DNA of 64,000 nucleotides from an uncultured Erysipelotrichaceae bacterium (GCA_902801795.1 CADCJQ010000002.1:1925-65924), one strand, 5' to 3'. Numbered from the stretch's first letter, positions 9,919 through 56,813 are shown. The notes: generated by a model not told the origin, from the letters alone. Numbers and translations: made by a program.

Positions 9919-9952
9919 GATATTGAAGACAGTAACAAAAGGGGGAAATAAA

Positions 9953-28993: not shown

Positions 28994-29094
28994 AATATCA
29001 CCAAAACAAGTATAACATGAATTCAAAGATAAAATCTCAAAAAGTGTATTTACATCATCTTTATTTTGTGATAAATTATAATAGTTGGTGTATT

Positions 29095-30105: not shown

Positions 30106-30457
30106 AAAAGTTATCCACAATAATTGTGGATAAAGATTGAATTAATTATTTAAAAATGTTATTGTGAATATGTCAAGGATAACTTAATATAATAAGAACA
30201 TACTAATAATCATAATATTATTAGTATGCTTTATTATTACCAAAAATAGTTATTCTAACGTAATATTAGAATATAAATAAACGTAAGTTACAAAAATATC
30301 ATCTTATGAAAAAAATCTTGTTTTAAACAATAATAGTGGAAAAAGTTTAATTAATAATTAATTACGTAAAGCAAGTATTTATAAATTAATTTTTATTTAT
30401 AAACCTTATTTACATATATTCTAATTTGTGGTAAATTATAATAGTTGGAGAGTTGTG

Positions 30458-31984: not shown

Positions 31985-32984
31985 ATTAAAGAAATGTCAT
32001 CTTTTAGTTAAATTAATGTTAATTGTTGATTTCTTTATTATGTTATGTTTTATCTTTGTTTATGGACCAATTGATTATGCGAAAGTTTTTTGGATAACAA
32101 CAGCTATGGCAACGGGAGAACATCGATATTTTGCTAATATCTTTTATAGTGAAGATACGATAAAAGAAGTTATGAGTAATAATTATTTAGAAGAGATAAA
32201 TGAAGATACGGATGTTAGTAGTATCACTATTGGTAAACAAGAGAAAGTTACTAGTTATACATCCGTTTATGAAAAAGAAATCTTAGAACATGATGAAGAT
32301 GCTTTATATAAATTAATTGAATTTAAATATAAAGAATTTGATTGTTATATGATAGCAGTATATGATCCTAAAAGAGTAGAAGTAGCTTATAATAAAAAAA
32401 TTAATCATGGTAAAATCTTAACAGAAATAGTTAAAGAAAATGATGCAATATTAGGAATTAATGGTGGAGGATATTTCTGGAGTAATGGATATCCTCAAGG
32501 TATGGTTGTTCATGACAGTAAAATAGTTTATTCTTCTGGTACACAAAAGAATACTACGGCTGCCATTAATGAAGATGGTGTTTTAGTTATTGGTAGTATG
32601 AATGCTAGTGATGTTAAAGAAAAAAATATTAAAGAAGCTGTTAGTTTTGGGCCTGCTTTGATTGTTAATGGTAAAGCAGCTAGTTTTAAAGGAAATGGTG
32701 GTAGTGGATTAAATCCAAGAACCGTTCTTGCTCAAAGAAAAGATGGTATAATATTATTCTTAGTAGTTAATGGCTATGGAAGTCGTTTATCTTGGAAAGG
32801 ACGCGGTGGCGTTTACGTAACTGATTTAATTAAAATATTAGAACGATATAGTGCTTATAATGCAATTAATATGGATGGAGGAAGTTCTACAACAATGGTT
32901 ATTGGTGATAAATTAATTAATGATCCTTGTGAACCTTTAAAAGATGGACAAGATTTTATTAGAACGGCATGGATATTAAAATAA
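31974..32984 (+). CDS. Phosphodiester glycosidase (NAGPA/DUF2233)-like protein, paralog 2
   Basis: Near-collinear with 29095-30105 at high amino-acid identity over the full length. Overlaps the preceding gene by 11 nt. Confidence 0.65.
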   Translation: MWNKLKKCHLLVKLMLIVDFFIMLCFIFVYGPIDYAKVFWITTAMATGEHRYFANIFYSEDTIKEVMSNNYLEEINEDTDVSSITIGKQEKVTSYTSVYEKEILEHDEDALYKLIEFKYKEFDCYMIAVYDPKRVEVAYNKKINHGKILTEIVKENDAILGINGGGYFWSNGYPQGMVVHDSKIVYSSGTQKNTTAAINEDGVLVIGSMNASDVKEKNIKEAVSFGPALIVNGKAASFKGNGGSGLNPRTVLAQRKDGIILFLVVNGYGSRLSWKGRGGVYVTDLIKILERYSAYNAINMDGGSSTTMVIGDKLINDPCEPLKDGQDFIRTAWILK

Positions 32985-34715: not shown

Positions 34716-35804
34716 ATGTATGATGACGATAGTTGGATGTTACCCAAGATGGAATTTAGAGAAGAAGCCCTTGAAGTAATGAAGAGAGGAGGAACGTCAA
34801 TTGTTCCAGCTTTTGTGATATTTAAGCAAATGCGTCCTGAGTTTAGAGATGATGATGAAATTGTATTAGAAGCTTTAAGGCATGGTGCTGATTTTTCATA
34901 TGCAAGTCCAAGATTAAGAAAAGATAGAGAATTTATTAAAAAAGCAATTGAATGTAATCCACATAGTATAGGTGGCGCCGATAGTCAATATAAAAATGAT
35001 GTTGAACTTGCATCAATGGCAATAAAAAAAGACCCTATTACAATTTTAGACTTTGGTTATGAAATAAAAGATAATTATGATTTGGTTTTACAAGCAGTTA
35101 GCAATTATAATAGGGATAGGAGTTTATCTAGAATGTCAATATTAGAGTATATAAGCCCACGTTTAAAAGACAATGAGCAAATTGTATTTGCTGCTGTTCA
35201 AAATGGTGATGAAATAAAATGGGCAAGTAATAGAATTCGTGATAATGAACAAATTGCGATGGAAGCCGTAAAAAAGAATGGATTTGCATTAGGGTATATA
35301 AGTCCAAGGTTAAGAGAAAAAAAAGAAATAATTATTGCAGCTTTGAAACAAAATCATGATGCATATGAATATGTTCCAGAAAGTATGAGAGCTAATGAAG
35401 ATGTAATTGATGTAATAAAAGATGATATGAATATTTGGAATGAGCATAGCCTACATTTTTTCAATTATCATTTAACTCCAGAAATAAGAGCTGTTAGAGA
35501 GAAAATACTTTCTTCATCTGTTACAACTCGTGAAAATGATAAAGTAGAAGAAAGAGAGGCAGCTTTATCAGAAGATGAAGAACAAAAAGTTGAAGATATT
35601 CAAACAAAGGATGAAGGAAAAGGGGATTTTGTTCATGAAGAAGATAAAACAAAATCTCGTGATGATTCTGAAATGCTTTCACTTATGAAAGAAATTTTGA
35701 CAAGCCAAAAGAGCGTAATTAAAAGAATTCAAGAATTAGATGACAAGGTAGCTAGATTAGAACAAAATGATAAAACAGATAGTTTATCAGGAATAGGTAA
35801 GTAA
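34716..35804 (+). CDS. DUF4116 repeat protein with an acidic, coiled C-terminus
   Basis: Repeated D.E.VL.A...G....YAS..LR.D.E motifs (at least 5 copies). Confidence 0.75.
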   Translation: MYDDDSWMLPKMEFREEALEVMKRGGTSIVPAFVIFKQMRPEFRDDDEIVLEALRHGADFSYASPRLRKDREFIKKAIECNPHSIGGADSQYKNDVELASMAIKKDPITILDFGYEIKDNYDLVLQAVSNYNRDRSLSRMSILEYISPRLKDNEQIVFAAVQNGDEIKWASNRIRDNEQIAMEAVKKNGFALGYISPRLREKKEIIIAALKQNHDAYEYVPESMRANEDVIDVIKDDMNIWNEHSLHFFNYHLTPEIRAVREKILSSSVTTRENDKVEEREAALSEDEEQKVEDIQTKDEGKGDFVHEEDKTKSRDDSEMLSLMKEILTSQKSVIKRIQELDDKVARLEQNDKTDSLSGIGK

Positions 35805-35908: not shown

Positions 35909-35961
35909 GAATATTTTCTTAAAATATTGACAAAATAATAATAAGTGCATAAAATAATGTT

Positions 35962-36226
35962 ATAAATCTTTGATGAAGAGAAGTAGTATTAATAAACTTA
36001 TTAGCGAGTTAACAATTGGTGAGAGGTTAACAAAGAAATATTAATATGAATAACACTTTGGAGAGCTTATCTGAAATAGAAGTAGGATTGCCGGGTATTT
36101 ACCGTTATAAAAATTGAGGTTATAAGACCGATAAGAGTGGTTACGTAAAGTAACAAAATGGGTGGTACCGCGAATTCAAGAGTCATTCGTCCCTTTGTGG
36201 ATAGAGACTCTTTTTTAATTATTATT
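35962..36226 (+). promoter_or_regulatory. T-box leader (Asn specifier) controlling asnS
   Basis: Promoter TTGACA, 17 nt, TAAAAT at 35927-35955. Stem I elements are present (AGCGAG, GGTGAGAGG). GAAUAACA in the specifier region offers AAU/AAC. The T-box core aaatgggtggtaccgcg is at 36156-36172. A terminator aagagtc...gactc plus T6 follows. Confidence 0.8.
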
Positions 36227-36242: not shown

Positions 36243-37616
36243 ATGGACGTAAAAGAATTATTTGAAAAAATTGAAGAATTGATGGATAAAGAAGTAACTT
36301 TATCGGGATGGGTAAGAAACCATCGTAAACAAAAAGAATTTGGTTTTATTGATTTTTCTGATGGAACTTGTTTTAAACATGTTCAACTTGTTTATACGGA
36401 TAAGTTAGATAGTTTTGATGAAATAAGTAAAATTAAAATTGGTTCTAGTATTGAGGTAGTTGGAAAAGTTATTAAATCAGAAGGATCTGGACAAGATTTT
36501 GAAATTAGTGTTCAAAGTATTAAATTATTAGGTGATTGTCCTGATGAATATCCTATTCAACCTAAAAGACATACGAGAGAATTTTTAAGAGAAGAAGCTT
36601 ATTTAAGACCAAGAACGAATCTTTTTCAAGCGGTATTTCGTGTACGTAGTGTAGCGGCTATGGCAATTCATACTTATTTTCAAGATAGGGGATACGTATA
36701 CTTTCATGCACCATTAATTACAGCAAGTGATTGTGAAGGAGCAGGTCAAATGTTTCAAGTAACAACACTTGATTTAGCAAGAATAGCCAAAGATGGAAAA
36801 GTAGATTATACGAAAGATTTCTTTGGTAAAACCGCTGCTTTAACAGTATCAGGTCAACTTGAAGCAGAAACTTTTGCGATGGCTTATAAAAAAACATATA
36901 CTTTTGGACCAACATTTAGGGCAGAAAACTCTAATACTAAAACGCATGCTAGTGAATTTTGGATGATTGAACCAGAAATTGCCTTTTGTGATTTAGAAGG
37001 TGTAATGGATGTTGAAGAAGATATGTTAAAGTATATTGTTAAATATGTTCTTGATAAATGTCCTGATGAAATGGCATTCTTTGATAGTTTTGTGGAAAAA
37101 GGTTTACTTGACAAATTACATAAATTACTTGACAGTAAGTTTACAAGAATTAGTCATCATGATGTTATAAAAATATTAAAAGAAGCTAAAGTTAAATGGG
37201 AATTTGAGCCAGAGTATGGTGAAGATATTGCTAAAGAACATGAAAAATATATTACAGATTACTTTAATGGACCAGTATTTATTACTAATTGGCCAAAAGA
37301 TATTAAAGCCTTTTATATGAAACAAAATGATGATAATGAAACCGTTGCGGCTGTTGATTTGGAAGTACCAGGAGCAGGTGAATTAATAGGTGGTAGTCAA
37401 AGGGAAGAAAACTATGATAAATTAGTTCGTCGAATGGAAGAACTTGGTATGGAAAAAGAAAGTATGGAGTGGTATTTGAATCTTCGTAAATATGGAGGTT
37501 GTGTTCATTCAGGATTTGGCATGGGCTTTGAGAGATTACTTATTTATTTAACTGGAATAGAGAATATTCGTGATGTTATTCCTTATCCAAGAACGCCAGG
37601 AAATTGTGAATATTAA
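36243..37616 (+). CDS. asnS: Asparagine--tRNA ligase
   Basis: 457 aa, class IIb. FRAENSNTKTHASEFWMIEPE and GFGMGFERL. Confidence 0.95.
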   Translation: MDVKELFEKIEELMDKEVTLSGWVRNHRKQKEFGFIDFSDGTCFKHVQLVYTDKLDSFDEISKIKIGSSIEVVGKVIKSEGSGQDFEISVQSIKLLGDCPDEYPIQPKRHTREFLREEAYLRPRTNLFQAVFRVRSVAAMAIHTYFQDRGYVYFHAPLITASDCEGAGQMFQVTTLDLARIAKDGKVDYTKDFFGKTAALTVSGQLEAETFAMAYKKTYTFGPTFRAENSNTKTHASEFWMIEPEIAFCDLEGVMDVEEDMLKYIVKYVLDKCPDEMAFFDSFVEKGLLDKLHKLLDSKFTRISHHDVIKILKEAKVKWEFEPEYGEDIAKEHEKYITDYFNGPVFITNWPKDIKAFYMKQNDDNETVAAVDLEVPGAGELIGGSQREENYDKLVRRMEELGMEKESMEWYLNLRKYGGCVHSGFGMGFERLLIYLTGIENIRDVIPYPRTPGNCEY

Positions 37617-37714: not shown

Positions 37715-39010
37715 GTGTATAATAATGATTTTAATATGAATAATAACTATGAATTATATAATAACCAAGTAATGTATAATAATCATCCAAAGAAAAAATC
37801 TAATTTAATTAAATGGATTATTGTTATTTTATTAGTTGTTGCTTTGGTATTTGTTGTTTTAAATTTATTTGATATTGAATTATTGACTAAAGAATATCAT
37901 GTAACTTTTGCATTGAACGGTGCTGATGAAATTGAAACTATGGAAGTAAAATGTCAATCTAATTTTAATAGAGAATGTCAAGTTACTTTACCAGTTGCCA
38001 AACGTAATAATGGTGAAGTTTTAGGTTATTCTCGTGATATGAATTCTAAAGAAGCAGAATATAAAATAGGGGATCAATTACATTTAACTTCAGATATGAA
38101 TTTGTATGTTATTTCTAAAAAGGAAAATAAATTAATTATTGATAAAAGTAATGTTGATGAAGTAAGAGATGGTAAGACAAGCTGTATAGTTTATAATAAT
38201 GAAAAAGCATGCAAAGTAGATGTGCCAATTTTTAATAAATTAGGTTATAAAATAGAAGGATACACTAAAGAAAAAGGCAATATTAATAATTTAGTTGAGT
38301 TTAATAGTAAAATAGAATTAAATAATAATATTACTTTATATCCTGTATATGGAGAATATCAACATTATACAAATACTTCTAAAACACATTTTAAAGTAGA
38401 TAAGAGTGTCTTTCTTCATAATATGTATTTGGATATTGATTATAATTGTAATAGTGTTGCTAATTCATTAATTTCTAACTTAAATAAATTATTTACTACA
38501 TATCCCTTTTATTCATATAATAGTAAAATTATGTTGTTAAATGAAATTAATTATACTGCATTTGAGCGAGCATCAGGATTTTCTAATTCAGCGGGATTTA
38601 CTAATGAATATGAACCGAAAAATCCTACTGTTTTAGTAATGTGCACAGAGTCCCTTTCGCCATATATTGTTGCAGTTCATGAATTAACTCATGTAATTGA
38701 TGTAAAGTATAAAGCTATATCAGGTCATTTTCTTGCTGAAGAAAAAGAATTAATTAATCTAAGAAACAAATATAAAAATGTTAATAACCGTCCACTAAGA
38801 GATTATGCCTATTCGGATAGTGGAAATAGTAATGTTCCAGAGTTTTTTGCTGAATTAATAACGTACTATTATTTTAATTATGTTGATACATCATATGTAA
38901 TTGATGAAGCTGGTTATAGAAGAGGTAATTTTCCTGATGATATGAAAAAAATTGCCGAGAAGTATTTATGTATAGGAAGAAATAATTATGATTTTAGTAA
39001 ATGTTCTTAA
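37715..39010 (+). CDS. Membrane-anchored putative zinc metalloprotease (HExxH...EFFAE, M34/ATLF-like pattern)
   Basis: N-terminal TM. HELTH at nt 38678-38692 and EFFAE at 38840-38854, about 50 aa apart, which is the spacing seen in anthrax-LF/PPEP-type proteases. Confidence 0.5.
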   Translation: MYNNDFNMNNNYELYNNQVMYNNHPKKKSNLIKWIIVILLVVALVFVVLNLFDIELLTKEYHVTFALNGADEIETMEVKCQSNFNRECQVTLPVAKRNNGEVLGYSRDMNSKEAEYKIGDQLHLTSDMNLYVISKKENKLIIDKSNVDEVRDGKTSCIVYNNEKACKVDVPIFNKLGYKIEGYTKEKGNINNLVEFNSKIELNNNITLYPVYGEYQHYTNTSKTHFKVDKSVFLHNMYLDIDYNCNSVANSLISNLNKLFTTYPFYSYNSKIMLLNEINYTAFERASGFSNSAGFTNEYEPKNPTVLVMCTESLSPYIVAVHELTHVIDVKYKAISGHFLAEEKELINLRNKYKNVNNRPLRDYAYSDSGNSNVPEFFAELITYYYFNYVDTSYVIDEAGYRRGNFPDDMKKIAEKYLCIGRNNYDFSKCS

Positions 39011-42094: not shown

Positions 42095-44932
42095 ATGGCA
42101 GCAAAAGACATTGATTTAGATTTAACGGATGTTGAATTAGCTAAAAAAGAAATAGAGGCTGCTTCTGAAGCAATAGCAGAAGGAGAAACCGCACTAGAAG
42201 AAGTTACTTCCGATAATCCTAATGTGCAACAAGAATTAGTAGAAGCACAGAACGTTGCGAGGGAGGCAGCACAAGATGCAAATAATATGCAAGAACAATT
42301 TAATAATTTTATTAATAATGCTAAAGATAAAATAAAGAATATTGCAGCTAGTTTTTCAGATTTTTTTGCAGGAAAACATGTTGAAAATGATATATCCGAA
42401 ACGAGTCAAACAGAAGTAAAAAGCAGTGAAGAAAGAATGGCTGATGTAAAAGACCGACTACAACAAGCACATGAAAAATTTCAAGAACAAAAAGATATAA
42501 TAAATAAAGGAAAAGGTGCTGCAGTTAGTATTATAGAAGATAAATCATCAATAACACTTGATGAATATCAGTCATTGGTTAATGAAGTGTTAGATTTATA
42601 TTTTAGTAAAGAGCAAGATTTGGCTGGTAAATTTAATAGCAATATTAAAATACAATTGGAAAAATTATATTTAGAAACTGCACCGAGAATAATTAATTCT
42701 GTGATTGATAGTGTATACTTAAGACAAACACAAAGAAAACTACAAAGTATAGAAGAAATATCTGAGACTGATGTTATATCTCTTAATGATTTTACATATG
42801 GTACAAAAGAGTACAATAAAGGTTTGATAGATTATAAAAACCATATTGCAGAAAATGTATCTCATTCAACAAAAGAATTTGATTTAAATAAGTATTATTC
42901 TAGTGAACAATTAGAAAATAAATCAGATTACGAAAAAAGTTTATTAGTATTGACAAATAGGGATGATTCTGCTTTTATACTTGGTAATGCGATATTAGAG
43001 TATTTCGAAATTATTGATGAAAAAAGTACTTATGAATTAAATGTTGAATTAAAAACTGTATTTAAAAACATTGATATAATAAAAAATCTTTTTTCTGTTG
43101 AATATGAAACTGCTGAAGATGTAGAGTCCTCTTATTATACTTGGAGAAATAATAAAGAAGAGACGAGCATAGGTTATCATTATTTAAATGATTTTATGGA
43201 TGTATTATTACCTCCATATTATAGTTTTTTTGAAGATAAAAATAAATTGGATGCAGAAAAATATGAGAAAATAACCAACTTTTCTCAAAGATTTAGTGAT
43301 ATAACAGAAGAAGAAATAAATAAATTAAAAGAGGACTATGAAGAAAGTGGGTCATTAGATGATGAAGTTTACGAAACGATGGCTAAACTTAATAAAATTG
43401 ATTTGCTTGATTTAGTGGAGGATTATTATTATGTTCGTGAATTTCAAACGTTAGATTTGATTTTACCTTATACTAGGGTTAATCTTGAAGTAAATGGTGA
43501 TATATATTATGTTAATATGAATGATATTGCGAATATGTATGAAAATGAAGATACTAATTATAGTACTAATTTGATAATTAAGTTGGTAGAAGATTCAAAA
43601 TTAACAAATACTAATTTAGAAGATGATGCTGTTTTCTTGAATATTAGCGGAATAAATATTCAAACATATTTGAGTAGCATAAAAAAAAGTATAGATGATA
43701 CAGGAAAATTTGATTATTTGCGTATGCTTGCAACATCTCATATAGGAGAAGATGATAAAGAAAAAAATATTATAATAAATCAAAATGGATTGGATTTTGA
43801 AACTAATGTGCAAGAAATAAAAGATTATTATGATGTATATGGCTATGAAGAATTATATCTAATTAAACATTTATATGATAATAATAGAATTGATGATAGT
43901 AATTATAATATTAATATTGCCGGTAGGCCAATTAATTGCTCATTAAAAGAATTATCTATATATTTTGATGAAGAAAATAAATTTGATTTAGAAAAGTTTG
44001 TTGATGAATTTGAACTTTCTGAATCAGAATATATGTATTTGTATAATTACAAATTAAATAATCCAGTTAACTTAGAAGATTTGAAAATTACCGCGATTAA
44101 TGAAAAGACCAGGGATTTTTATGAAAAATATGGAAGTGTTGATCAAGGAGGATTAAATAAACTATTTGAAACTAATACAGATGAGTCAAAGGAGGAGTGG
44201 AATCGATTATTAGATTTTTGCAAGGATAAATATCATTTAGCTGGTGACACTGCTTTAAGTATTATGAGATCATTAGATTCTGTTGGAGCATGTTCATATG
44301 CTGATATGTGTAATATTATTTATGAGATGTATGATTTTGATAATGAAAAATTTATGCATGATTTTAGTTATCCAATAGTTAATGAAAATGGAACACTTAA
44401 TAGTAATCAACTATTATTAGATTTATATATTTATCAAAATATTGGTGATGCAAATAATCCAGGCAGATTATTAATAAAAGATACAGAAGGAAATTTACAT
44501 GTGAATGAAAATTATCTTGATGAATACAACGAAAATTTGGATGTACATAATCAAGAGTATATGTCAGGATATGGCTATTTTAAATTAGATAAAATGAAAA
44601 GTTTTCTTCGTGATAATAATTGTAGTATTGAAGATTATCATAATTATCAATATAAAATTATTTATTTTTATGATGAAAAATATAAAGAAGAAATGAATAA
44701 AGCTTTAAATTCAGATTCTATTGTATCATTAAGTTTTGGTGATACGGCAGAGTATTATTTTTTAGGCGATAATCCATATTATTATCACATGAATAATGAT
44801 GGACACGCCGTAACCGGTGTTGGTATTACCGAAGATGGAATTATAGAAAGAACTTGGGGGGAAGTTGGGTGGACTCCCTTTGATAGCATTGGTTATGGTA
44901 ATGCTGTAATAATTTATAAAAAAGGAGAATGA
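42095..44932 (+). CDS. Large protein: helical N-terminal region, long middle region, C-terminal papain-like Cys/His pattern (candidate secreted effector/toxin)
   Basis: 945 aa with no signal peptide or TM. The C-terminus has GACSYADMC (Cys at nt 44291) and DGHAVTGVG...RTWGEVGW (His at nt 44804), which resembles the C...HAV.GY...NSWG layout of the papain fold. Confidence 0.55.
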   Translation: MAAKDIDLDLTDVELAKKEIEAASEAIAEGETALEEVTSDNPNVQQELVEAQNVAREAAQDANNMQEQFNNFINNAKDKIKNIAASFSDFFAGKHVENDISETSQTEVKSSEERMADVKDRLQQAHEKFQEQKDIINKGKGAAVSIIEDKSSITLDEYQSLVNEVLDLYFSKEQDLAGKFNSNIKIQLEKLYLETAPRIINSVIDSVYLRQTQRKLQSIEEISETDVISLNDFTYGTKEYNKGLIDYKNHIAENVSHSTKEFDLNKYYSSEQLENKSDYEKSLLVLTNRDDSAFILGNAILEYFEIIDEKSTYELNVELKTVFKNIDIIKNLFSVEYETAEDVESSYYTWRNNKEETSIGYHYLNDFMDVLLPPYYSFFEDKNKLDAEKYEKITNFSQRFSDITEEEINKLKEDYEESGSLDDEVYETMAKLNKIDLLDLVEDYYYVREFQTLDLILPYTRVNLEVNGDIYYVNMNDIANMYENEDTNYSTNLIIKLVEDSKLTNTNLEDDAVFLNISGINIQTYLSSIKKSIDDTGKFDYLRMLATSHIGEDDKEKNIIINQNGLDFETNVQEIKDYYDVYGYEELYLIKHLYDNNRIDDSNYNINIAGRPINCSLKELSIYFDEENKFDLEKFVDEFELSESEYMYLYNYKLNNPVNLEDLKITAINEKTRDFYEKYGSVDQGGLNKLFETNTDESKEEWNRLLDFCKDKYHLAGDTALSIMRSLDSVGACSYADMCNIIYEMYDFDNEKFMHDFSYPIVNENGTLNSNQLLLDLYIYQNIGDANNPGRLLIKDTEGNLHVNENYLDEYNENLDVHNQEYMSGYGYFKLDKMKSFLRDNNCSIEDYHNYQYKIIYFYDEKYKEEMNKALNSDSIVSLSFGDTAEYYFLGDNPYYYHMNNDGHAVTGVGITEDGIIERTWGEVGWTPFDSIGYGNAVIIYKKGE

Positions 44933-46864: not shown

Positions 46865-48160
46865 ATGGATAATACAGAAAATGAAATTATGGAATATGCT
46901 ACTAATGCTGTTGAAGTGTTAAATGGTTCATATTCTAATAGTCAAGATAATTTATCAAACATGGGTTGTAATAATAAATTTCAAGAATTTGAAGAAAAAT
47001 TTAATATGCTTGATACCAAATATGATAATGTTTTAGATAAGGGTAAAGCATATGATAACGATGCTAATCAAACTAATAATGTTAAAAACAATAATTTAAT
47101 ATCTGATAAGCATAAAAGTATAAGTAGTAAAAATATTTTAAGTGATGCCTTTGCTAATATACAAAAAGATGAAGAGCAGATATTCTTTGATTTTAAAGAA
47201 ATGATAAGAATAAATAATGAAAATAATATGGAAACAGAAAATGCTGATAATAGTATTTGGAGTATGATAGGTAAATCGTTAGATAATTTGTTTACAAATC
47301 TAGTTGGTGGGCTTGTTTCTTCAGCTAAGGCAGAGAGTGGGGGAATGGTAGTAGCAGATGCAGATTTCTTTAGAGATATTGGTAAAAGTATTGATAGTAA
47401 TGGCAATGTTAAAGTAGGAGGTTATACATATAATGTTAATACACATAAGTTAACTATAGAAAATAGAGAAACAGTAGTTGACTATTATATACCAACAGGA
47501 TATACTAAAGATGGATTGAAGAGAGCTTATACAATAACTTGGTTGTGTGCACAAAATGAAGGTTATGTAACTAGTGAAGATATGTCAAAAGTAAATTCAC
47601 CTTGTGTGATTGTTATCCCTCATCATGTTGAAGGACAATCACTAAAGAGTCAAGTGATTATGGCAGATAATGTAGTAGATAGTACAGATTTTATGATTAA
47701 AACTATTAATCAAGATTCGTATTGTAAAAATGGACTTGGTGGTGATTCCCTTGGAGGCGGTTCTGTTCCCAAAATAATGGCAACTAAACGCGGAAAAGAA
47801 ATATATAATGCAGGACAAGTTAATAATTATCCAGCCGTTTTTGCTTCAATAAATGTTGATGGCATAAGAAGTGATAAAGGCGGAAAAGAGAGTAATGCCG
47901 ATAGTGTTAAATTGAATGCTGAGGATTTTATTAATTTAGATGGTAAAGTAATAATATATTCATATTCATCTAATGGTGGTGGTGATGATCATACAGTTAG
48001 TGCTGCAAAAAGTTCTGTTATTGAATTCAACGAAAACACTACAGGTACTATTATATGGGATGAAAACAGCCCGTCATATTATATCGGAGGTCATTCTAAA
48101 TATCATGATATGCGTGTCGATTGTATGAATAGTGCTGATATGTTTTCATATTTGCCTTAA
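46865..48160 (+). CDS. Hypothetical protein with a C-terminal globular domain containing GGDSLGGGS (possible serine-hydrolase nucleophile motif); candidate effector
   Basis: 431 aa with no signal peptide. GDSLG at nt about 47744-47758. Last gene before rlmB. Confidence 0.4.
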   Translation: MDNTENEIMEYATNAVEVLNGSYSNSQDNLSNMGCNNKFQEFEEKFNMLDTKYDNVLDKGKAYDNDANQTNNVKNNNLISDKHKSISSKNILSDAFANIQKDEEQIFFDFKEMIRINNENNMETENADNSIWSMIGKSLDNLFTNLVGGLVSSAKAESGGMVVADADFFRDIGKSIDSNGNVKVGGYTYNVNTHKLTIENRETVVDYYIPTGYTKDGLKRAYTITWLCAQNEGYVTSEDMSKVNSPCVIVIPHHVEGQSLKSQVIMADNVVDSTDFMIKTINQDSYCKNGLGGDSLGGGSVPKIMATKRGKEIYNAGQVNNYPAVFASINVDGIRSDKGGKESNADSVKLNAEDFINLDGKVIIYSYSSNGGGDDHTVSAAKSSVIEFNENTTGTIIWDENSPSYYIGGHSKYHDMRVDCMNSADMFSYLP

Positions 48161-48872: not shown

Positions 48873-49487
48873 ATGATGTATAACAACATGAATGATTATG
48901 AAATAATTTATATGGTATGTGATGAGAAAGATAATAATTATAATATTTTGTATAATAAATATAAACCATTAATAAATAAAATAGCTGAAAAGTATAAATA
49001 TGCTTTTAAAAAATTTGGTTATGAAAAAGAAGATATTATGCAAATAGGATATTTAGTATTATATAAAACATCATATATGTATAATGAAAATAATTGTTCG
49101 ATGTTTTATACATATTTTAAAAATGCATATGAAAAAGCCTTATTAACAGAATTAAGAAATAACAGTACTAATAAAAAGGAAGTATTAAATAATGCTTTTT
49201 CATATGATATTACTATTCCAAATAGTAATCTATCATATATTGATTTAATTAAAGATAATAGTTATCAAGAAAATGATGATTATATCAAATTAATAATTAA
49301 TTTTAAAAATTCAATGTCATTTGAATTAGGATGTGTTTTTGAACTATTTTATAATGGCTATGATTATGAAGAAATTAGTTTATTATTAGATAAAAATAAT
49401 GATGAAATAAAAAATAGTATGAAAGAAATAAAAAGACATGCCTTGACATATAGATATTTATTTTTAAAAAAATGTGTGTTACAATAA
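48873..49487 (+). CDS. Divergent sigma-70 family factor (SigH/ComX-like by position after rlmB)
   Basis: 204 aa. Region-2-like EDIMQIGYLVLYKTSYMYN...FYTYFKNAYEKAL. The rlmB-sigH synteny is that of Bacilli. Confidence 0.5.
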   Translation: MMYNNMNDYEIIYMVCDEKDNNYNILYNKYKPLINKIAEKYKYAFKKFGYEKEDIMQIGYLVLYKTSYMYNENNCSMFYTYFKNAYEKALLTELRNNSTNKKEVLNNAFSYDITIPNSNLSYIDLIKDNSYQENDDYIKLIINFKNSMSFELGCVFELFYNGYDYEEISLLLDKNNDEIKNSMKEIKRHALTYRYLFLKKCVLQ

Positions 49488-49507
49488 TTTAGTATTTGAG
49501 GTGAATT

Positions 49508-50035
49508 ATGAATAAGAAACAGATGTTAAAAGAACAAAAAAGATTAAAACAAGAAAGAAGAGATGCAGAAAAGTTATTTGGTGATAATAATGGAGTAAAT
49601 AATCTTGTTAAGATAACTATCGGAGTAGTTGGATTTATTTTAATAGCTTTTGCCTTAATTAATATTTTTAATGGTAATTGGAATATCTTTAATAAAAGTA
49701 ATAAAAAAGCAACTGAGATTGATCCAAAAATGGTAATGGTAGGAACAATGTTTAATAAAGAAGATGGGGAATATCTTGTTCTTGCATATGATATGCAAGA
49801 TAATAATAGTGTTTATGCATATTTAGCAAGTAATTATTATGGAAGTCCTAATCTATATTATTTAGATTTATCAAGTGGATTTAATAGTAATTTTATTGGT
49901 GATAAAACTATTGTTTCAGAAGATTTATCTAAACTTAAATTCTCTTCTGCAACGCTTATGTTAATAAATAAAGATAAAATTACTAAGTCATATACTACAG
50001 AAGATGAAATTGTAAATTATTTTAATAATAAATAG
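49508..50035 (+). CDS. Single-pass membrane protein (unknown function; an anti-sigma role is only positional speculation)
   Basis: 175 aa. Basic N-terminus, one TM (ITIGVVGFILIAFALINIF) and an extracytoplasmic domain. Confidence 0.5.
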   Translation: MNKKQMLKEQKRLKQERRDAEKLFGDNNGVNNLVKITIGVVGFILIAFALINIFNGNWNIFNKSNKKATEIDPKMVMVGTMFNKEDGEYLVLAYDMQDNNSVYAYLASNYYGSPNLYYLDLSSGFNSNFIGDKTIVSEDLSKLKFSSATLMLINKDKITKSYTTEDEIVNYFNNK

Positions 50036-50117: not shown

Positions 50118-52208
50118 ATGAAGGATAAAAAGAGTTTATATTTAGCATTTATTTTAGGATTATTTATTGTTGCTGTAGGGATGATTTCTTTTATTGTTTT
50201 TAGTAATGTTAAAGAGAATAATAAAGTATTTATAAATAATGAAGTACAATTAGGAGATGATTGGAATAATTGTGTTACGATTTCCTCAAATTATAAAACA
50301 TCAACTAGAGGTAGTATATCATATGGTGGAAATACTTATACAAGTGTAGCGCCAGCATCAGGAAATACATGGTATAAATTTGAAACTAATACTAATTGTG
50401 ATAAGGGATATTATTGTTATACTTTAAAAAAATGTACATTAAATAGTTCATCAACTCCAGCAGGAACAACAGCAGATGGCAAATGTAAACCAGGATATCG
50501 AAAATCAAATGGTCAATGTGTTGTTTGTCCAAATGGAAGATGGAGTGATGGTGGTGATGCTACTACTTGTTTTGCTTGTGGTGCGGGATTTATTTGTAAA
50601 GATGGCACACGATCACAATGTCCAAGTAACACTTATACTAAAACTGATAGTTCATCTGAATGTACTTTATGTAATGGAACTGTAGAAAAAAATAAGTGTG
50701 TTGGAAATGAAACATCTTGTAGTGAAGGATATAGATTAAATAATGGTAGTTGTGTTGCATGTGGAGACGGATATTGGAGTAATGGTGGAACAGTTACTAG
50801 TTGCTCTCCTTGTCCAGCGGGATACTCATGTCAGGGTAACAAAAAGACTGCTTGTACAGATAATACTTATTCAGCAGGTGGCGGTAGTAAATGTTTAACA
50901 TGTAATGGTAAAGTAAATGATGCTCATACGTCATGTGAAGTATCGCAAGCATCACAGTGTTCAAAAGGTTATAGATACGATTCTACAAGTAAAAAATGTG
51001 TATATTGTAGTGGAATTACTGAATATCAACCAAATGCAGGACAAACAAAATGCCTTTATTGTACAAATGGTAAAGTGGCGAATGCTGATCACACGGATTG
51101 TATTAGTGGCGCATGTCCTTTAGGATATTATCTTGGAAGTGGTGGAAATTGTATTACTTGTACTGTGGGACATTATTGTAATAATGGTTCTACTCAAACA
51201 AGTTGTAGTGATGGTTATTATCAGAATTTAACAGGACAATCATCATGTAAGAAATGTTCATCTAATGAAAAATCTAATGCTAATCATACTGCTTGTGTGA
51301 AAAAATCAAGTAGCAATCCATCATCATCCGATAAATGCTATAGAGATACTAATAATGATTATCAAGTAGGTAATTATAATAATCAACCTGGATATACATT
51401 AGTTTCAAATGAAACTAAAAATTGTAATAATATCAAAGTTAAGAAAGTTGATAGTAATACAACTGTGTTAACGGGAGCAACTATAACATTTACGGATAGT
51501 AGTGTTCCTCCTGTTACTAGAACTTTTAATATTGGTGAAACAGATATTAATATGACAAATCCTGGTACTTATACAATAGTAGAAACTGTTGCCCCAACAG
51601 GATATCAAATAGATAATACCCCAATTCAAGTAATTGTTAATGATGATGGAACAATTAATGTTACTGGGGGAACAAATATTGATTTAGGAACTAGTAACGG
51701 TACAAGAAATATTACTTTATCTATTATTAATAATAATAGAAGTCCAGAACCAACTGCTGAAGAATATTGTTATGTAAAACGTGGAAATGGTACTAATAAT
51801 GAGTATTGTTTTGGAAATACAGATACAAGTTGTGTAGGGTATAGTGAAGTTGTTTCTGGAAGAACAAGAGAAACTTGTACAGAAGATATTGCTTGTTATC
51901 AAAAAACAGACGGAACTTATACTGTTGGAAAATTTGATGGACAATTTGGTTATCAATATTTTGGTACTATTTGTCCTGCATGTTATGAAGATGCTAATGG
52001 AAACTATCGTTGGACGAATACACCTAATGCTAACGAAAGACCTGTTGCTGAAATTAATACTATTGACAAGTGTGTAACACCAGCGAAAATCTCAAATAAT
52101 AAGATTATCTATATTATATTAATCGTAGTTGTTGCAATTGCATTATTTTTAGTTATTAAGTCATTAAAGAAAGGTAATGGCAATAATAATATGTCAACAG
52201 AGTATTAA
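50118..52208 (+). CDS. Cysteine-rich bitopic surface protein (CXXC/ephrin-receptor-like repeats, Cna-B-like domain, conserved C-terminal Cys module, TM anchor)
   Basis: 696 aa. N-terminal TM followed by NNEVQLGD. Repeats of the form C..CP.G.W/Y...G....C..C (for example GYYQNLTGQSSCKKC). IKVKKVDSNTTVLTGATITF...GTYTIVETVAPTGYQ (about nt 51430-51740). CYVKRGNGTNNEYCFG...CPACYEDANGNYRWTNTP. C-terminal TM plus a tail ending STEY. Confidence 0.75.
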   Translation: MKDKKSLYLAFILGLFIVAVGMISFIVFSNVKENNKVFINNEVQLGDDWNNCVTISSNYKTSTRGSISYGGNTYTSVAPASGNTWYKFETNTNCDKGYYCYTLKKCTLNSSSTPAGTTADGKCKPGYRKSNGQCVVCPNGRWSDGGDATTCFACGAGFICKDGTRSQCPSNTYTKTDSSSECTLCNGTVEKNKCVGNETSCSEGYRLNNGSCVACGDGYWSNGGTVTSCSPCPAGYSCQGNKKTACTDNTYSAGGGSKCLTCNGKVNDAHTSCEVSQASQCSKGYRYDSTSKKCVYCSGITEYQPNAGQTKCLYCTNGKVANADHTDCISGACPLGYYLGSGGNCITCTVGHYCNNGSTQTSCSDGYYQNLTGQSSCKKCSSNEKSNANHTACVKKSSSNPSSSDKCYRDTNNDYQVGNYNNQPGYTLVSNETKNCNNIKVKKVDSNTTVLTGATITFTDSSVPPVTRTFNIGETDINMTNPGTYTIVETVAPTGYQIDNTPIQVIVNDDGTINVTGGTNIDLGTSNGTRNITLSIINNNRSPEPTAEEYCYVKRGNGTNNEYCFGNTDTSCVGYSEVVSGRTRETCTEDIACYQKTDGTYTVGKFDGQFGYQYFGTICPACYEDANGNYRWTNTPNANERPVAEINTIDKCVTPAKISNNKIIYIILIVVVAIALFLVIKSLKKGNGNNNMSTEY

Positions 52209-52210
52209 GA

Positions 52211-52239
52211 AAGAATGAAAAAAATTTTCATTCTTTTTT
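52211..52239 (+). terminator. Rho-independent terminator
   Basis: aagaatgaaaa / ttttcattctt perfect 11-bp stem followed by a T-run. Confidence 0.75.
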
Positions 52240-52307
52240 CTATATTTTGTTGATTTAGTTTCTGCTTTTAAGTATAATAATATTATAAGAAGGATAGGTA
52301 TTAGTAT

Positions 52308-53891
52308 ATGATAAATTCTAAAATAAAATATATTGTGCTTGGATGTTCAATAATTGTATTATTATTTTTATTTTTAGTTTCTTTTAGTAACAATGGTAAA
52401 AATAATGTTCAAAATTTTTTAGATAATAATTACGATAAAGAACAATTAGCTGATGTTACATGTATGGTAACTTCAGGACCAATAAATGTTTATGGGGAAG
52501 ATGGGGCTTATAGTTCGGTATCAAGTTGTTCTGATGTAAAAAAAGAAGGAAATTGTTATGTTAAAAAAAATACTGTTGACACAAGTTATTGTGGTCCAGA
52601 TGATAGTGCTGATTGTTATTTATATTGGAAATATTATGTAAGTTGTAGTGGAACATCTATAACCTGTTCACCAGGTTATTATATTCCATCTGGTTCATCT
52701 CAATGTAATCAGTCATGTCCTGCTGGTTATAAATGTCCAGGGGGCACATATTCTATAAATAGTAGTTCATCAAGCTTTGAAAAATGTCAGGGAACTACAT
52801 ATAGTACAGGTGGTTCATCTCAATGTAATACCTGTAGCGGGACTCTTGTTGTAAATAATGGCTTAAATGTAGGTTGTAATATTCAAAATAATGATAAAAT
52901 AATTTGTTCACCAGGATATTATATATCATCAGGCTCAACTAAATGTGATCAGTCATGTCCAGCGGGATATAAATGTCCAGGAGGAACATATTCTGTAAAT
53001 AGTAGTTCATCAAGTATTGTAAAATGTCAAGGAACTACATATAGTACAGGAGGTTCATCTCAATGCAGTACGTGTAGTGGAACTCTTGTTGCAAATAATG
53101 GCTTAAATGTAGCGTGTGATATTCATAATATTACATGTAATATAGGAAATCATTTAAAAAATAATAATTCATGTACCCCATGTGAACCAGGAACATATGG
53201 CGGTGGCGGTAAGAATACAAGTTGTGATAGTTGTCCATCACCATATCAAGATGGAGGCGCTGGAGCCAAATCAATAAACGAATGTGAAGCATATGTTAGT
53301 GCAGGATATAAAGTACAGTTTGCGGGAACAAGTAGTAAAACATATGTATGTTCTGTTGGGTATTATTCAAAAGGTGGAACAGTTAAGTATGGAAATTCCT
53401 TTGATTGCACAAAATGTCCAGAAGGTTCAACAACTAAATATGTAGGAAGTAAAAGTGAATCTGATTGTAATATTTGTTTAACTGGTTATCATAAGTTACC
53501 AAATGGACAATGTACAAAAGATTTAACAGATAAAGATAAAATGCCATGTGATCCGGGATTTTATCAAGAGACTGAAGGTGGTGGTGAAAAGTCATATTCT
53601 GTAGGTAAAACAGCAGTTTGTTCGACATGTCCAGGTGAAATAGTAGAAAGTTCTAGTGGGTTACATATTGGTTGTAATATGGGAACACCTAAACATACAG
53701 CAAATGCAGCATGTAATAACGATGGAACAGTATCATGTACTGGATGTGATGTTATGCAACAAAGATATAATAATACTACCAAAAAAAATGAAATAATAGT
53801 TCAGACGCAAGATGATTATAAATTTTCTGATGGCTCGACAATTAAAACAGTAGTTTGTGAAATAAAAGAGTACAAAAGATTTAACAGATAA
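52308..53891 (+). CDS. Cysteine-rich surface protein, N-terminal portion (signal/TM plus CXXC repeats; lacks the Cna-B, C-terminal module and anchor)
   Basis: 527 aa. N-terminal TM followed by EQLADVTC. Two 80-aa tandem repeats. CTPCEPGTYGGGG..C and CTKCPEGSTTKYVGSKSESDC motifs. Ends in a unique tail with a stop inside the second copy of a duplicated segment. Confidence 0.65.
   Translation: MINSKIKYIVLGCSIIVLLFLFLVSFSNNGKNNVQNFLDNNYDKEQLADVTCMVTSGPINVYGEDGAYSSVSSCSDVKKEGNCYVKKNTVDTSYCGPDDSADCYLYWKYYVSCSGTSITCSPGYYIPSGSSQCNQSCPAGYKCPGGTYSINSSSSSFEKCQGTTYSTGGSSQCNTCSGTLVVNNGLNVGCNIQNNDKIICSPGYYISSGSTKCDQSCPAGYKCPGGTYSVNSSSSSIVKCQGTTYSTGGSSQCSTCSGTLVANNGLNVACDIHNITCNIGNHLKNNNSCTPCEPGTYGGGGKNTSCDSCPSPYQDGGAGAKSINECEAYVSAGYKVQFAGTSSKTYVCSVGYYSKGGTVKYGNSFDCTKCPEGSTTKYVGSKSESDCNICLTGYHKLPNGQCTKDLTDKDKMPCDPGFYQETEGGGEKSYSVGKTAVCSTCPGEIVESSSGLHIGCNMGTPKHTANAACNNDGTVSCTGCDVMQQRYNNTTKKNEIIVQTQDDYKFSDGSTIKTVVCEIKEYKRFNR
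52659..53130 (+). repeat. Two tandem 240-nt coding repeats
   Basis: Copy starts at 52659 and 52899. Each encodes CSPGYYI.SGS..C.QSCPAGYKCPGGTYS.NSSSSS..KCQGTTYSTGGSSQC.TCSGTLV.NNGLNV.C. Confidence 0.85.
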
Positions 53892-55710
53892 AGATAAAAT
53901 TCCATGTGATCCGGGATTTTATCAAGAGACTGAAGGTGGTGAATGTCTACCTTGTCCAGCGGGATATGCTTGTGATAATGATAAAATTGCTTGTAAAGGA
54001 ACAAAATCATATTCTGTAGGTAAAGCAGCTGTTTGTTCGACATGCCCAGGGGAAATAGTAGAAGATTCTAATGGATTGCATGTTGGATGTAATTTGAAAA
54101 ATTCAGAGTTGCAAAGCAATATTAAATGTATGAATGGAGGAACGTATGGCGATACATGTGAACCATGTCCAGATAATTATAATTATTCTAATAGTAATGT
54201 TCCAACAATAGGGAATTGCCAAAGAAAGCTTGCTGCTGGATATGAAATGATTTTTGCATATGCAGAGCCAACGAAATGTTCTAAGGGATATTATAGTGAA
54301 GAAAGAATTGTTAATTACGGTAGTTCATCAAGATGTACTTGGTGTGGTTCAGGAAAAACAACTAATGATATGGGGGCTACGTCAATTAATGATTGTATTG
54401 ATGCGAATAATTCTAATGCACCCATAACTCCGGAAAAAGATAATATAGATTTATCTAAGATAAAATGTAGTCCTGGTACTGGCTGGAGTGATCAAGAAGG
54501 TAAGTGTATTCCTTGTAGTGGTAATACTATTCAAAAATATACTGCTCATCGTTCATGTGAAGCTTGTCCAAGTGGAAAAACGGCTAATAAAGCAAAAACT
54601 AATTGTGATTTAACATCATGTAATTTAGGATACTATATAGAAAATGGAAAATGTGAAAAATGTAGTAAAGGTCATTATTGTGATGGTAAAAATAGTAAAG
54701 TCTGTGATGATGGATCTTATCAAGATGAAGTAGGACAATCTAGTTGTAAGCAATGTGAAGGTAATAAAAAATCTAATTCTGATCATACTTCATGTGTGAA
54801 CAAAACAAGTAGTAGTGGAAATTCAAATACCAATATTGTACAAGAAAAATGTTATCGTGATAGTAACAATGATTATGTAGTAGGCAATTATGATAATCAA
54901 GTTGGTTATGTCTATATATCAGATTCAATTATTAATTGTAATAATATAAAAATTAAAAAAATTGATTCTAATAATGTTACTTTGGCTGGTGGAACAATAG
55001 TTTTTGAAGAGGTTCTAAATCCTAATAATAATAGAACATTTATAATTGGAGAAACTGATATTAGTATGTTAAATTCAGGTAGTTATTTAATAAAAGAAAC
55101 TATTGCACCAATAGGCTATTCTTTAGAAACTAATGAAATAAGAGTAACAGTTAATGGAAATGGGACAATAACTATTAATAGTAATGCCAATATTAATTTA
55201 AATGCAACTAATGGTACAAGAAATATTAAAATTGATTTAATTAATATTTTAGATAGTACAAATAATGAGGAAGAAAAATGTTACGTAAAACATGAAAAAG
55301 ATGGATTTAATACATATTGTTATGGAGATAATACAACATGTCCAGATTATGAAGAAACTATTGAAGGAAGAAATAAGGATACTTGTGATGAAGAACTTGC
55401 ATGTTTTCAAAAACAAGATGGATCTTTTGTAACAGGAAAATATAGTAATCAAAATGAATATCAATATTTTGGAATGATGTGTCCAGCATGTTATGAAAAG
55501 AATAATGGTGATTATTATTGGACGAATACTCCTCTTTCTAATGAAAAATTAATAAAGGAAATTAGTTTATCGAATATGTGTTATGCTCCTCAAAAAAATA
55601 GTAGTAAATTAATATATTTAATATTATTAATTTTGGTGGTAATTATATTATTTGTAGTAATAAAATTTAGAAAAAATAAAAACAACAATAGTTTTTCAAC
55701 AGATTATTAA
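53866..55710 (+). pseudogene. C-terminal portion of a cysteine-rich surface protein (no start codon or signal of its own); apparently the +1-frame continuation of 52308-53891
   Basis: The frame is open from 53866. The track start 54076 is a TTG that encodes Leu within NGLHVGCN. Contains CXXC repeats (GSYQDEVGQSSCKQC, GKTTNDMGATSINDC), a Cna-B-like IKIKKIDSNNVTLAGGTIVF...GSYLIKETIAPIGYS, the conserved C-terminal Cys module, a TM and a tail ending STDY. Confidence 0.6.
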
Positions 55711-55724
55711 AATGAGGTGAAAAT

Positions 55725-56813
55725 ATGATAAATGATAAAAATGTAAAATATTTAATAATTGGATGTTTGATTTTTGCACTAGTGATTACGACATCGCTAT
55801 TTATTAAAGATGAACTTATGGATAATGATTATAATAATGAAATAAAATTAGCTGATGCTGTAACACAGTGTATGGATAGTTGTATGAATGCTGGTGTAGA
55901 GCGCTCTATTTGCCAAGCTAGTTGTTCAGGGGCTAAGTCATCGAATAGTCAATCATCTGGTCAAACATCCGTTGCAACAAAATGTATAGATAGTTGTATG
56001 AATGCTGGTGTAGAGCGCTCTATTTGCGAAGCAAGTTGTTCAGGGGCTAAGTCGAATAGTCAATCAACGGGTCAATCATCTATTGTAACAAAATGTATAG
56101 ATAGTTGTATAAATGCTGGTGTAGAGCGCTCTATTTGCGAAGCCAGTTGTTCAGGGGCTAAGTCGAATAGTCAATCAACGGGTCAATCATCTATTGTAAC
56201 AAAGTGTATAAATTCGTGTGTGAATGCTGGTGTGGATCGATCTACTTGTGAAGCAAGTTGTTCAGGGGCTAAGTCGAATAGTCAATCATCTCAAAATAAT
56301 AATTCAAATAATAATTCAAATAATAGTTCGAATAACAACAATACAAATAGTAATAGTCAACCACAAGAAGAAACTGCACAATGTTATGTTAGAAGAGATT
56401 CAGGTATAAATAATGAGTATTGTTATGGTACTAGTGAAACGTGTTCAGGATTTAGTGAAGTAGAAGTTGATAAAACAGAATCTGATTGTAATGAAAATGA
56501 TGCTTGTTATGAAAAAGCTGATGGAACATATGTTTTAGGAAAGTTTGATAAACAATCAGGATATCAATATTATGGAAGTACATGTCCAGGATGTTATGAA
56601 AAGGATAATGGAGATTATTATTGGACAAGTACACCAGCGACAAATGAAAAAGTAGTTCCTGGAATCAATACTTCTAATAAATGTATTACACCAAGTAAAT
56701 CTATTTTTAGTTCTAAAAAAATTATCTTTATTGCCTTAATAGTTGTTATATTGATAGCATTATTTGTAGTATTGAAGTCATTAAAGAATAATAATAAAAA
56801 TATTAATTATTAA
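55725..56813 (+). CDS. Short member of the cysteine-rich surface protein family (tandem 37-38-aa Cys repeats, Asn/Ser-rich linker, conserved C-terminal Cys module, TM anchor)
   Basis: 362 aa. N-terminal TM followed by NNEIKLAD. Four copies of KCIDSC.NAGVERSICEASCSGAKSNSQS. CYVRRDSGINNEYCYG...CPGCYEKDNGDYYWTSTP. TM plus a tail ending NINY. Confidence 0.75.
   Translation: MINDKNVKYLIIGCLIFALVITTSLFIKDELMDNDYNNEIKLADAVTQCMDSCMNAGVERSICQASCSGAKSSNSQSSGQTSVATKCIDSCMNAGVERSICEASCSGAKSNSQSTGQSSIVTKCIDSCINAGVERSICEASCSGAKSNSQSTGQSSIVTKCINSCVNAGVDRSTCEASCSGAKSNSQSSQNNNSNNNSNNSSNNNNTNSNSQPQEETAQCYVRRDSGINNEYCYGTSETCSGFSEVEVDKTESDCNENDACYEKADGTYVLGKFDKQSGYQYYGSTCPGCYEKDNGDYYWTSTPATNEKVVPGINTSNKCITPSKSIFSSKKIIFIALIVVILIALFVVLKSLKNNNKNINY
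55866..56290 (+). repeat. Tandem coding repeat array, about 3.8 copies of 111-114 nt
   Basis: The Cys codon phase recurs at 55869, 55983, 56094 and 56205. Copies 2 and 3 differ at only a couple of positions. Confidence 0.9.

Follow-up and report, generated by a model that had tools for sequence, protein, structure and literature searches.

Adhesins and pilins of the CnaB/SpaA type, such as S. pyogenes FbaB (whose CnaB2 domain is SpyCatcher) and L. rhamnosus SpaC, are modular extracellular proteins that carry a prealbumin-like SpaA domain, end in LPXTG, are linked to the wall by sortase and are essentially Cys-free. Cys-rich repeats of the Ephrin_rec_like or TNFR type are found in eukaryotic proteins, including the Eph receptors, ELAPOR1, the TNFR superfamily and Chlamydomonas Mst1, and the VSPs of Giardia place a variable CXXC ectodomain before a conserved C-terminal region, a transmembrane (TM) helix and a short conserved tail. 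The literature places the origin of Ephrin_rec_like in eukaryotes and reports it only sporadically from bacteria (PMC6993872). Bacterial examples are Ilumatobacter YM304_37510 (PMC6993872) and paralogs in GCA_016845365.1 that join the repeat to RCC1, all of them presumably secreted. Here we describe a 64,000-nucleotide stretch of DNA from an uncultured Erysipelotrichaceae bacterium (GCA_902801795.1, CADCJQ010000002.1:1925-65924; hereafter the window), in which a sequence-only reading had pointed to three consecutive genes, A, B and C, and a distant paralog, D, as coding for Cys-rich, doubly anchored surface proteins. Our analysis supported the view that the four genes encode paralogous, Cys-rich, extracytoplasmic, membrane-anchored proteins, and the family to which they belong contains at least one undescribed domain within a Gram-positive modular surface protein type. 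On balance, we favor the reading that these are lineage-specific, type-I-anchored adhesin-like surface proteins of a walled, low-GC gut bacterium within the Bacilli, stabilised by disulfide and isopeptide bonds, in which a hairpin module forms a wall-spanning stalk.

The open reading frame (ORF) list bore out all four genes, which are co-oriented. Their coordinates, with the parts of A, are as follows:

50118-52208 (+), gene A, 696 aa with 48 Cys (ORF list, hydropathy, Pfam)
50235-50258 (+), post-TM motif NNEVQLGD of A, aa 40-47 (family motif comparison)
50484-51299 (+), Cys-rich repeats of A, aa 123-394, Ephrin_rec_like/TNFR-like type
51429-51665 (+), SpaA/CnaB-type domain of A, aa 438-516 (Pfam SpaA, 6.2e-15)
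51759-52097 (+), C-terminal module of A, aa 548-660, three Cys-bounded beta-hairpin units with 8 Cys
52104-52205 (+), C-terminal TM helix (aa 663-680) and basic tail KSLKKGNGNNNMSTEY of A (hydropathy)
52308-53891 (+), first part of gene B, 527 aa as assembled (ORF list, Pfam, hydropathy)
53866-55710 (+), second part of gene B, open frame of 614 aa, first start codon at 54076 (ORF list, Pfam), with Cys-rich repeats, SpaA at 54943-55182, module at 55270-55605, TM helix and a tail ending FSTDY
55725-56813 (+), gene C, 362 aa, module at 56373-56714, TM helix and a tail ending NINY
17698-19599 (+), gene D, distant paralog, 633 aa (ORF list, hydropathy, module profile)

In A, an N-terminal hydrophobic segment is followed by NNEVQLGD, the Cys-rich repeats, SpaA, the C-terminal module, the TM helix and a tail ending MSTEY. 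The first part of B opens with a hydrophobic segment, DKEQLAD and Cys-rich repeats, among them a 240-nt tandem duplication (52665-53130). Gene C starts 14 nt after the end of B and has a hydrophobic segment, NNEIKLAD, 3.8 tandem 111-nt repeats (55859-56288) of one 4-Cys unit each and an Asn/Ser-rich linker, while D joins its hydrophobic segment and NNEIQLGD to mixed Cys-rich units, Pro/Thr linkers, a TM helix and the tail RRKK. All of these motifs, the CXXC strings quoted by the sequence-only reading and the Tyr-ending tails of A, B and C were thus located in the proteins, as was RRKK in D. By hydropathy, A, C and D each have a single hydrophobic segment at either end, and in B the same pair is split across the two halves. 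Cys makes up 6.5-8.2% of the four proteins. A six-frame scan of the 64 kb with hidden Markov models (HMMs) found no further copy of the module or of a Cys-rich unit.

The element that defines the cluster is its C-terminal module of ~112 aa. Pairwise identity among A, B and C is 49-55%, and all three match the module HMM at E ~1e-61 across positions 1-112. D holds two copies of the first ~45 module residues (18721-18855 and 19156-19290; E 9e-5 and 9e-8). The prediction of a conserved module in the cluster, with partial copies in D, therefore held in both alignment and HMM, and since only the first third of the module is present in D, twice, we regard D as a peripheral family member. Neither Pfam nor NCBIfam contains a relative of the module, and no PDB sequence matched it even at E = 10. 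An AlphaFold2 model built on 24 aligned sequences (pLDDT 92.9) predicts a string of beta-hairpins and no other fold element; each of its three units opens with CY and closes with Cys. Foldseek matched this model to nothing in PDB (best E 0.9, TM-score 0.19) or in BFVD. Confidently modelled and without a relative in these databases, the module is an undescribed small domain. Its second and third Cys are absent jointly in 4 of the 24 sequences and never singly, and since they are lost only together they are likely to pair. The module adjoins the C-terminal TM helix in nearly all full-length family members, and A and B carry an additional hairpin unit of the same type upstream of SpaA.

The variable ectodomain parts had been likened to eukaryote-style repeats, and for A and B the Pfam thresholds agreed. 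A unit HMM resolved the repeats of A into three full units of ~65-75 aa (aa 123-200, 201-274 and 333-394) with a weaker partial unit between them. The curated Pfam gathering cut-off is 23.1 bits for both PF07699 (Ephrin_rec_like) and PF17802 (SpaA); Ephrin_rec_like scored 34.4 bits in A, 40.6 in the first half of B and 43.5 in the second. C and D gave no Pfam match above cut-off, and D showed weak, sub-threshold DPY and Myxo_Cys_RPT matches in Pfam and NCBIfam scans. Across the 37 members of the wider family, PF07699 matched 7 at E <= 1e-4. Two units of A (aa 118-280), modelled with AlphaFold2 from a 15-row alignment, gave a pLDDT of 83.7, and the best structural matches of this model in PDB were all eukaryotic Cys-rich repeat proteins, namely the Chlamydomonas mastigoneme protein Mst1 (E 7.6e-4), DcR3, 4-1BB, RANK, CD40 and ELAPOR1. 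These fold matches are modest, with TM-scores of only 0.2-0.4 and most E-values between 1e-3 and 5e-2.

The window proteins also differ from the eukaryotic ones. No Pfam VSP, Paramecium surface-antigen or TNFR_c6 match was obtained, the host is a bacterium and its codon usage is native in these genes, and the repeats are fused to SpaA or Big_2. The nearest Ephrin_rec_like proteins outside the family, the bacterial RCC1-repeat protein of GCA_016845365.1 and probable eukaryotic ones, are only 26-29% identical, and no recent donor could be named. The bacterial Ephrin_rec_like proteins have the same repeat, but with RCC1/WD40-like or HYR partners, and they lack the N-terminal LGD motif and the C-terminal module (identity 27% over 37% of A). 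Kinship with the CysRRep repeats of rumen fungi and bacteria (bioRxiv 10.64898/2026.06.07.730663) was considered and rejected because the Cys spacing differs. As a separate observation, an extra small unit, CC-x(12-16)-C-x(8-13)-C (e.g., CCYISGSYAIVPKNACDNLGTDVSSSNPKC), recurs in D and in the family members P0013, P0014, P0016-P0018, P0020, P0029 and P0044; it has no family match.

The beta-sandwich signature IK[VI]KK[VI]DSN...ET.AP.GY, ascribed earlier to a Cna-B/SpaA-like domain in two members, was found in A and B, where PF17802 scored 55.6 and 37.7 bits, respectively. In a phmmer search, the domain of A matched the PDB sequences of FbaB CnaB2/SpyCatcher and SpaC at E 1e-8 to 1e-10, and it is 36% identical to S. 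pyogenes FbaB CnaB2 over 86 residues. A candidate isopeptide triad in A consists of the Lys of IKVKKVD, the Glu of IVETVAP and the Asn of TLSIIN. The Lys and Glu align with Lys31 and Glu77 of FbaB CnaB2, and an Asn of the last strand is kept in 10 of the 11 SpaA domains of the family. Across the 37 members, SpaA occurs in 10 and Big_2 in 7, both of them extracellular bacterial domains. The window proteins thus resemble the CnaB/SpaA adhesins in their SpaA domain and modular build, but differ from them in having ~7% Cys, no LPXTG-like motif and an apparently retained TM helix and tail.

This architecture proved to be extremely rare, and the expectation that it was not a common, named one was upheld. 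A profile search of 1.84 billion representative proteins returned 46 at E <= 1e-3, a few of which were spurious repeat proteins, and all module-carrying clusters were unnamed. No relative of the module was found in 185,579 GTDB species genomes, and JGI metagenomes yielded two loci with the module. Word-indexed searches of 5.8 billion clusters with the module, A and a distant member returned 1, 11 and 8 proteins, none named, and recovered just the window's own proteins and domain-level matches. An already-named family was rejected, as the module, the N-terminal motif and the C-terminal signal all fall outside the models of Pfam and NCBIfam. The common plan of full-length members runs from a Lys-rich N-terminus and a ~22-residue hydrophobic segment through the L[GA][DE] motif, a variable ectodomain and hairpin units to a TM helix and a basic tail, and their ectodomains are assembled from Cys-rich units, Big_2, SpaA and other conserved, unnamed segments. 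Two subgroups can be distinguished. In the first, made up of ~20 distant members, several ACYxDxxGxYxWGxY...C units in tandem lead into VPxT[AGS], which precedes the TM helix and a KK tail. The second, comprising the window proteins and their closest relatives, lacks VPxT[AGS]; here C[VI]TP[AS]K stands ahead of the TM helix, and the tail is longer, with [ST][ED][YE] as a frequent ending. Ectodomain Cys number is even in 28 of the 32 full-length members (range 16-110; binomial p = 1e-5, a value that overstates independence and is inflated, since members are related and share homologous units). Together with the joint loss of module Cys 2 and 3, the even counts point to structural disulfides outside the cell.

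At the N-terminus, the L[GA][DE] motif (with F in one member) lies 32-61 residues from the start in A-D and in 27 of the 32 listed full-length members. Tails ending in Y or [ST][ED][YE] recur in close relatives. The charge layout, with a Lys-rich N-terminus, hydrophobic segment, ectodomain, TM helix and Lys/Arg-rich tail, fits the positive-inside rule. The sequence-only reading had noted that an LPXTG signal and a lipobox were lacking, and neither was detected. Scanning with [LIVN][PA]xT[GASN] near the C-termini of A, B, C and D was negative, and elsewhere in these proteins the pattern matched only VAPTG within a SpaA domain and VPTTS in the D linker. An early Cys occurs in the N-terminal segments of B (LGC) and C (IGC), at residues 11-14, and none in A and D; by eye, we judged neither to be a lipobox since the hydrophobic stretch runs ~15 residues beyond the Cys. 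The Giardia VSP is an architectural analogue of these proteins, but no VSP model appeared among Pfam matches at E <= 1, and the tail ends MSTEY, FSTDY, NINY and RRKK differ from CRGKA, the invariant cytoplasmic tail of VSPs. We also observed that an HtrA-like protease (Trypsin_2 and PDZ) at 13985-15160, with an N-terminal hydrophobic segment, carries NANLGD at residue 55, resembling the xLGD of the family. This may be chance, the odds of a 3-residue motif turning up once among the TM-start ORFs tested being roughly even, or it may hint at a shared processing signal. An Abi_2 (abortive-infection-like) gene at 13021-14013 overlaps the start of the HtrA-like gene by 29 nt.

Under the reading that we favor, each protein would be exported by Sec through its N-terminal hydrophobic segment. 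The C-terminal TM helix would hold it in the membrane, leaving the short basic tail in the cytoplasm in a type-I-like topology. The module, with its three small, disulfide-closed hairpin units, and the isopeptide-type SpaA domain would form a rigid stalk through the cell wall, at the tip of which the fast-evolving Ephrin_rec_like/TNFR-like repeats may act as the ligand-binding, adhesin-like part. Several points weigh against this reading. The stalk is modelled from the module's position and predicted shape, the conserved LGD motif and Tyr-ending tail are given no role, and the N-terminal segment could equally be a cleaved, long Gram-positive signal peptide instead of an anchor. The even-Cys statistic, as noted, is inflated. 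Moreover, Firmicutes generally exclude cysteine from exported proteins (PMC2823432), and neither the window nor the surroundings of six other family members showed a thiol-disulfide oxidoreductase.

If the reading is correct, surface proteins with 24 to more than 100 paired Cys in an anaerobic Firmicute would need an undescribed oxidative-folding route, and a bacterial family would be using Ephrin_rec_like repeatedly as a component, joined to an isopeptide-type adhesin domain. Since they place a eukaryote-type repeat in a bacterial adhesin scaffold, the proteins might interact with a host or with protists in the gut and rumen. A broader proposal, which we put forward tentatively and consider possible rather than probable, is that some uncultured, spore-forming Bacilli of the gut and rumen possess an undescribed mode of building their surface. 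Here, a TM segment with the xLGD signature, a disulfide-stapled beta-hairpin stalk and TNFR/ephrin-type tips would be combined, and within the family a retained TM helix and conserved tail would have taken the place of a sortase-type VPxTG anchor. Such a mode would imply an unrecognised capacity for extracytoplasmic oxidative folding in an anaerobic Firmicute, and perhaps that the ligands of host or protist receptors are mimicked or bound. The practical weight of these proposals is limited by the uncultured organisms, the tiny family and the putative function.

An alternative is that the proteins are sortase substrates, with the TM helix and basic tail forming a degenerate sorting signal and the mature protein attached covalently to peptidoglycan. 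SpaA domains are typical of sortase-anchored proteins, and in ~20 distant members [VIT]PxT[AGSD] (VPPTA, VPKTS, VPATG, VPPTG) lies 5-10 residues ahead of the TM helix, which is followed by a KK-rich tail, in the layout of LPXTG proteins. Non-canonical sortase signals include the SrtB class QVPTGV and the class D LPNTA, which the VPxT[AGS], TM helix and basic tail of the distant members resemble; such a motif is, however, absent near the C-termini of the four window proteins. Common to their closest relatives are, instead, C[VI]TP[AS]K and a longer tail whose end (MSTEY or STDY) is conserved, which suggests that the tail is kept. NCBIfam gave no sorting-signal match, even for the VPxT members P0018 and P0048, and neither the window nor the flanks of other members revealed a sortase gene. 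We therefore consider sortase anchoring unlikely.

No likelier is a repertoire of variable surface antigens in which recombination among repeats drives switching or diversification and broken copies act as a reservoir. The sequence-only reading leaned this way, citing a partly broken organisation. The break in gene B falls at the following repeat:

53512-53583 and 53870-53941 (+), repeat pair D8, 72 nt, 99% identical

The reading frame is lost at 53869/53870, exactly at the first base of the second D8 copy. A contig from another assembly of the same strain (L001) is 100% identical to 53869 and then continues in frame with EIKECQEGYH until the contig ends. In this contig, the first D8 copy is also followed by 57 extra nt. 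A second contig (L002) ends within gene B, and two more from a single third sample (L003 and L094) break inside D8. By analogy with the first D8 copy, we reconstruct that ~38 nt are missing from B in the window, which would explain the +1 shift. The split is thus probably a misassembly at the 72-nt repeat, although a genuine recombinational variant is conceivable, and the assembly that reads through speaks against a broken gene. In an exact look-up, neither half of B was recorded as a called product.

The other evidence on a repertoire is divided. Tandem paralogs with a conserved anchor and divergent ectodomains, together with internal DNA repeats of 72-240 nt, would suit it, and the two assemblies differ in B exactly within repeats. 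Gene content also differs among related species. In one of them (L085), an A ortholog (last 204 aa 85% identical) is followed after 14 nt by a C ortholog, with no B; the C ortholog, P0013, is 45% identical overall, close to 80% in the module and TM helix, and remodelled in its ectodomain. Ectodomains and gene content therefore vary between species. Within the strain, little variation was seen: protein A is identical on 4 contigs, and the three other assemblies all encode it. Over the stretch compared, which starts 100 nt upstream of B and runs until a contig ends or the repeat breakpoint is reached, these assemblies are 100% identical, and same-strain contigs agree except in the gene B repeat. 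The breakpoint repeat is longer than, or near, the assembler k-mer, three other contigs end there and ~38 nt would restore the frame. Nothing suggestive of an invertible promoter or a long homopolymer tract was seen in the region; as a phase switch these were rejected, only chance-level AT-rich inverted repeats and an A4 run having been found. A six-frame scan of the window, the only search made for silent cassettes, yielded no extra or silent module copy, and the 64 kb contain just four members.

We give still less credence to the idea that the proteins are Cys-rich components of the forespore or spore surface, made during sporulation and not as vegetative adhesins. Cross-linked Cys-rich proteins are common in spore coats, and the genes for SpoIVA, SirA, YunB and small, acid-soluble spore proteins (SASP) on contigs with family members imply that the lineage forms spores. 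The window cluster lies downstream of a SigH-like sigma gene, and two distant members directly follow genes for SpoIVA and for M23/M50 peptidases. The neighborhoods are, however, otherwise housekeeping in nature and not conserved between members, and hydrophobic segments at both ends and the adhesin domains SpaA and Big_2 are not known features of coat proteins. As to the two distant members, one (L084, 10001-12433) stands directly after SpoIVA, and the other (L086, 10001-13030) after M23 and M50 peptidase genes with weak Pfam matches, possibly SpoIVFA/SpoIVFB-like, and before YunB. These placements may reflect a link to sporulation or coincidence.

That the proteins are type-I receptors, with a TNFR-like ectodomain that senses a ligand and a short, Tyr-ending cytoplasmic tail that signals, is very unlikely, for although the ectodomain belongs to the fold class of eukaryotic receptors and the extreme C-terminus is conserved in the window subgroup (MSTEY, FSTDY, SKSEY, MSTEE), the tail has just 7-25 residues, among which no domain can be recognised, the neighboring genes do not consistently include a kinase or regulator, and the distant members have KK-type tails only.

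The host of the adhesin-like proteins is a walled bacterium. For AsnRS, its identity is 81% to an uncultured-bacterium metagenome-assembled genome and 73% to Candidatus Onthocola stercoravium (Bacilli incertae sedis). Since the window codes for a Mur ligase and for FtsX with an extracellular domain, the host has a cell wall, and a wall-less, Mollicutes-like host, which would have explained a TM anchor without LPXTG, was ruled out. Record names suggest that the family inhabits the rumen and gut. The GC content at third codon positions (GC3) of A-D is 0.105-0.152, compared with a background of 0.132 +/- 0.019, and their higher overall GC arises at codon position 2, i.e., from amino-acid composition. 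Recent eukaryotic transfer or contamination was ruled out by this background-like GC3 and by the bacterial housekeeping neighbors, and a phage origin was rejected in view of the lack of PHROG matches and of BFVD structural matches.

The cluster is preceded by rlmB, the SigH-like sigma gene and a gene for a 175-aa membrane protein, and followed by genes for ABC-type ATPases, truA, rplM and rpsI, the last two named through their correspondence with Pfam-annotated genes of the syntenic locus L085. No partner gene (sortase, Dsb/VKOR or protease) was common to the seven contexts examined. The sigma-like gene (204 aa) and that of the membrane protein lie at 48873-50035. The former has no Pfam match, matches PHROG sigma-factor families, and stands after a SpoU/RlmB methylase, like B. 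subtilis sigH. The 175-aa single-pass membrane protein, encoded directly upstream of A, has no family match; in the related genome L092, a 176-aa gene takes the same position after the sigma gene. The slot after sigH was considered as a conserved family site and rejected, since in L092 it holds an unrelated protein that is not Cys-rich. This protein (L092, 15888-19310; 1140 aa) is Asn/Tyr-rich, with an N-terminal TM segment, few Cys and no Pfam match, and is of an uncharacterised, surface type. Between A and B, two putative transcription signals were noted as consensus matches only:

52207-52278 (+), intergenic A-B, with an AT-rich hairpin and T run, terminator-like, at 52207-52239
52250-52278 (+), promoter-like TTGATT-17-TATAAT before B

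Elsewhere in the window, several large ORFs (431-945 aa) have no Pfam match (42095-44932, 46865-48160, 22090-23517, 30428-31984 and 37715-39010), and judging from these the lineage holds much uncharacterised protein space. Three tandem sigma-70-family genes (320, 719 and 413 aa) lie at 6834-11164, of which the middle one resembles RpoD and carries a long N-terminal extension. At 29017-30105 and 31962-32984 are the genes of a pair of NAGPA (phosphodiester glycosidase) paralogs, with a 518-aa ORF without match between them, and a DUF4116-repeat protein is encoded near the pair at 34716-35804. Finally, a T-box leader (35961-36197; 120.9 bits) lies upstream of an AsnRS/AspRS-type synthetase gene at 36243-37616.

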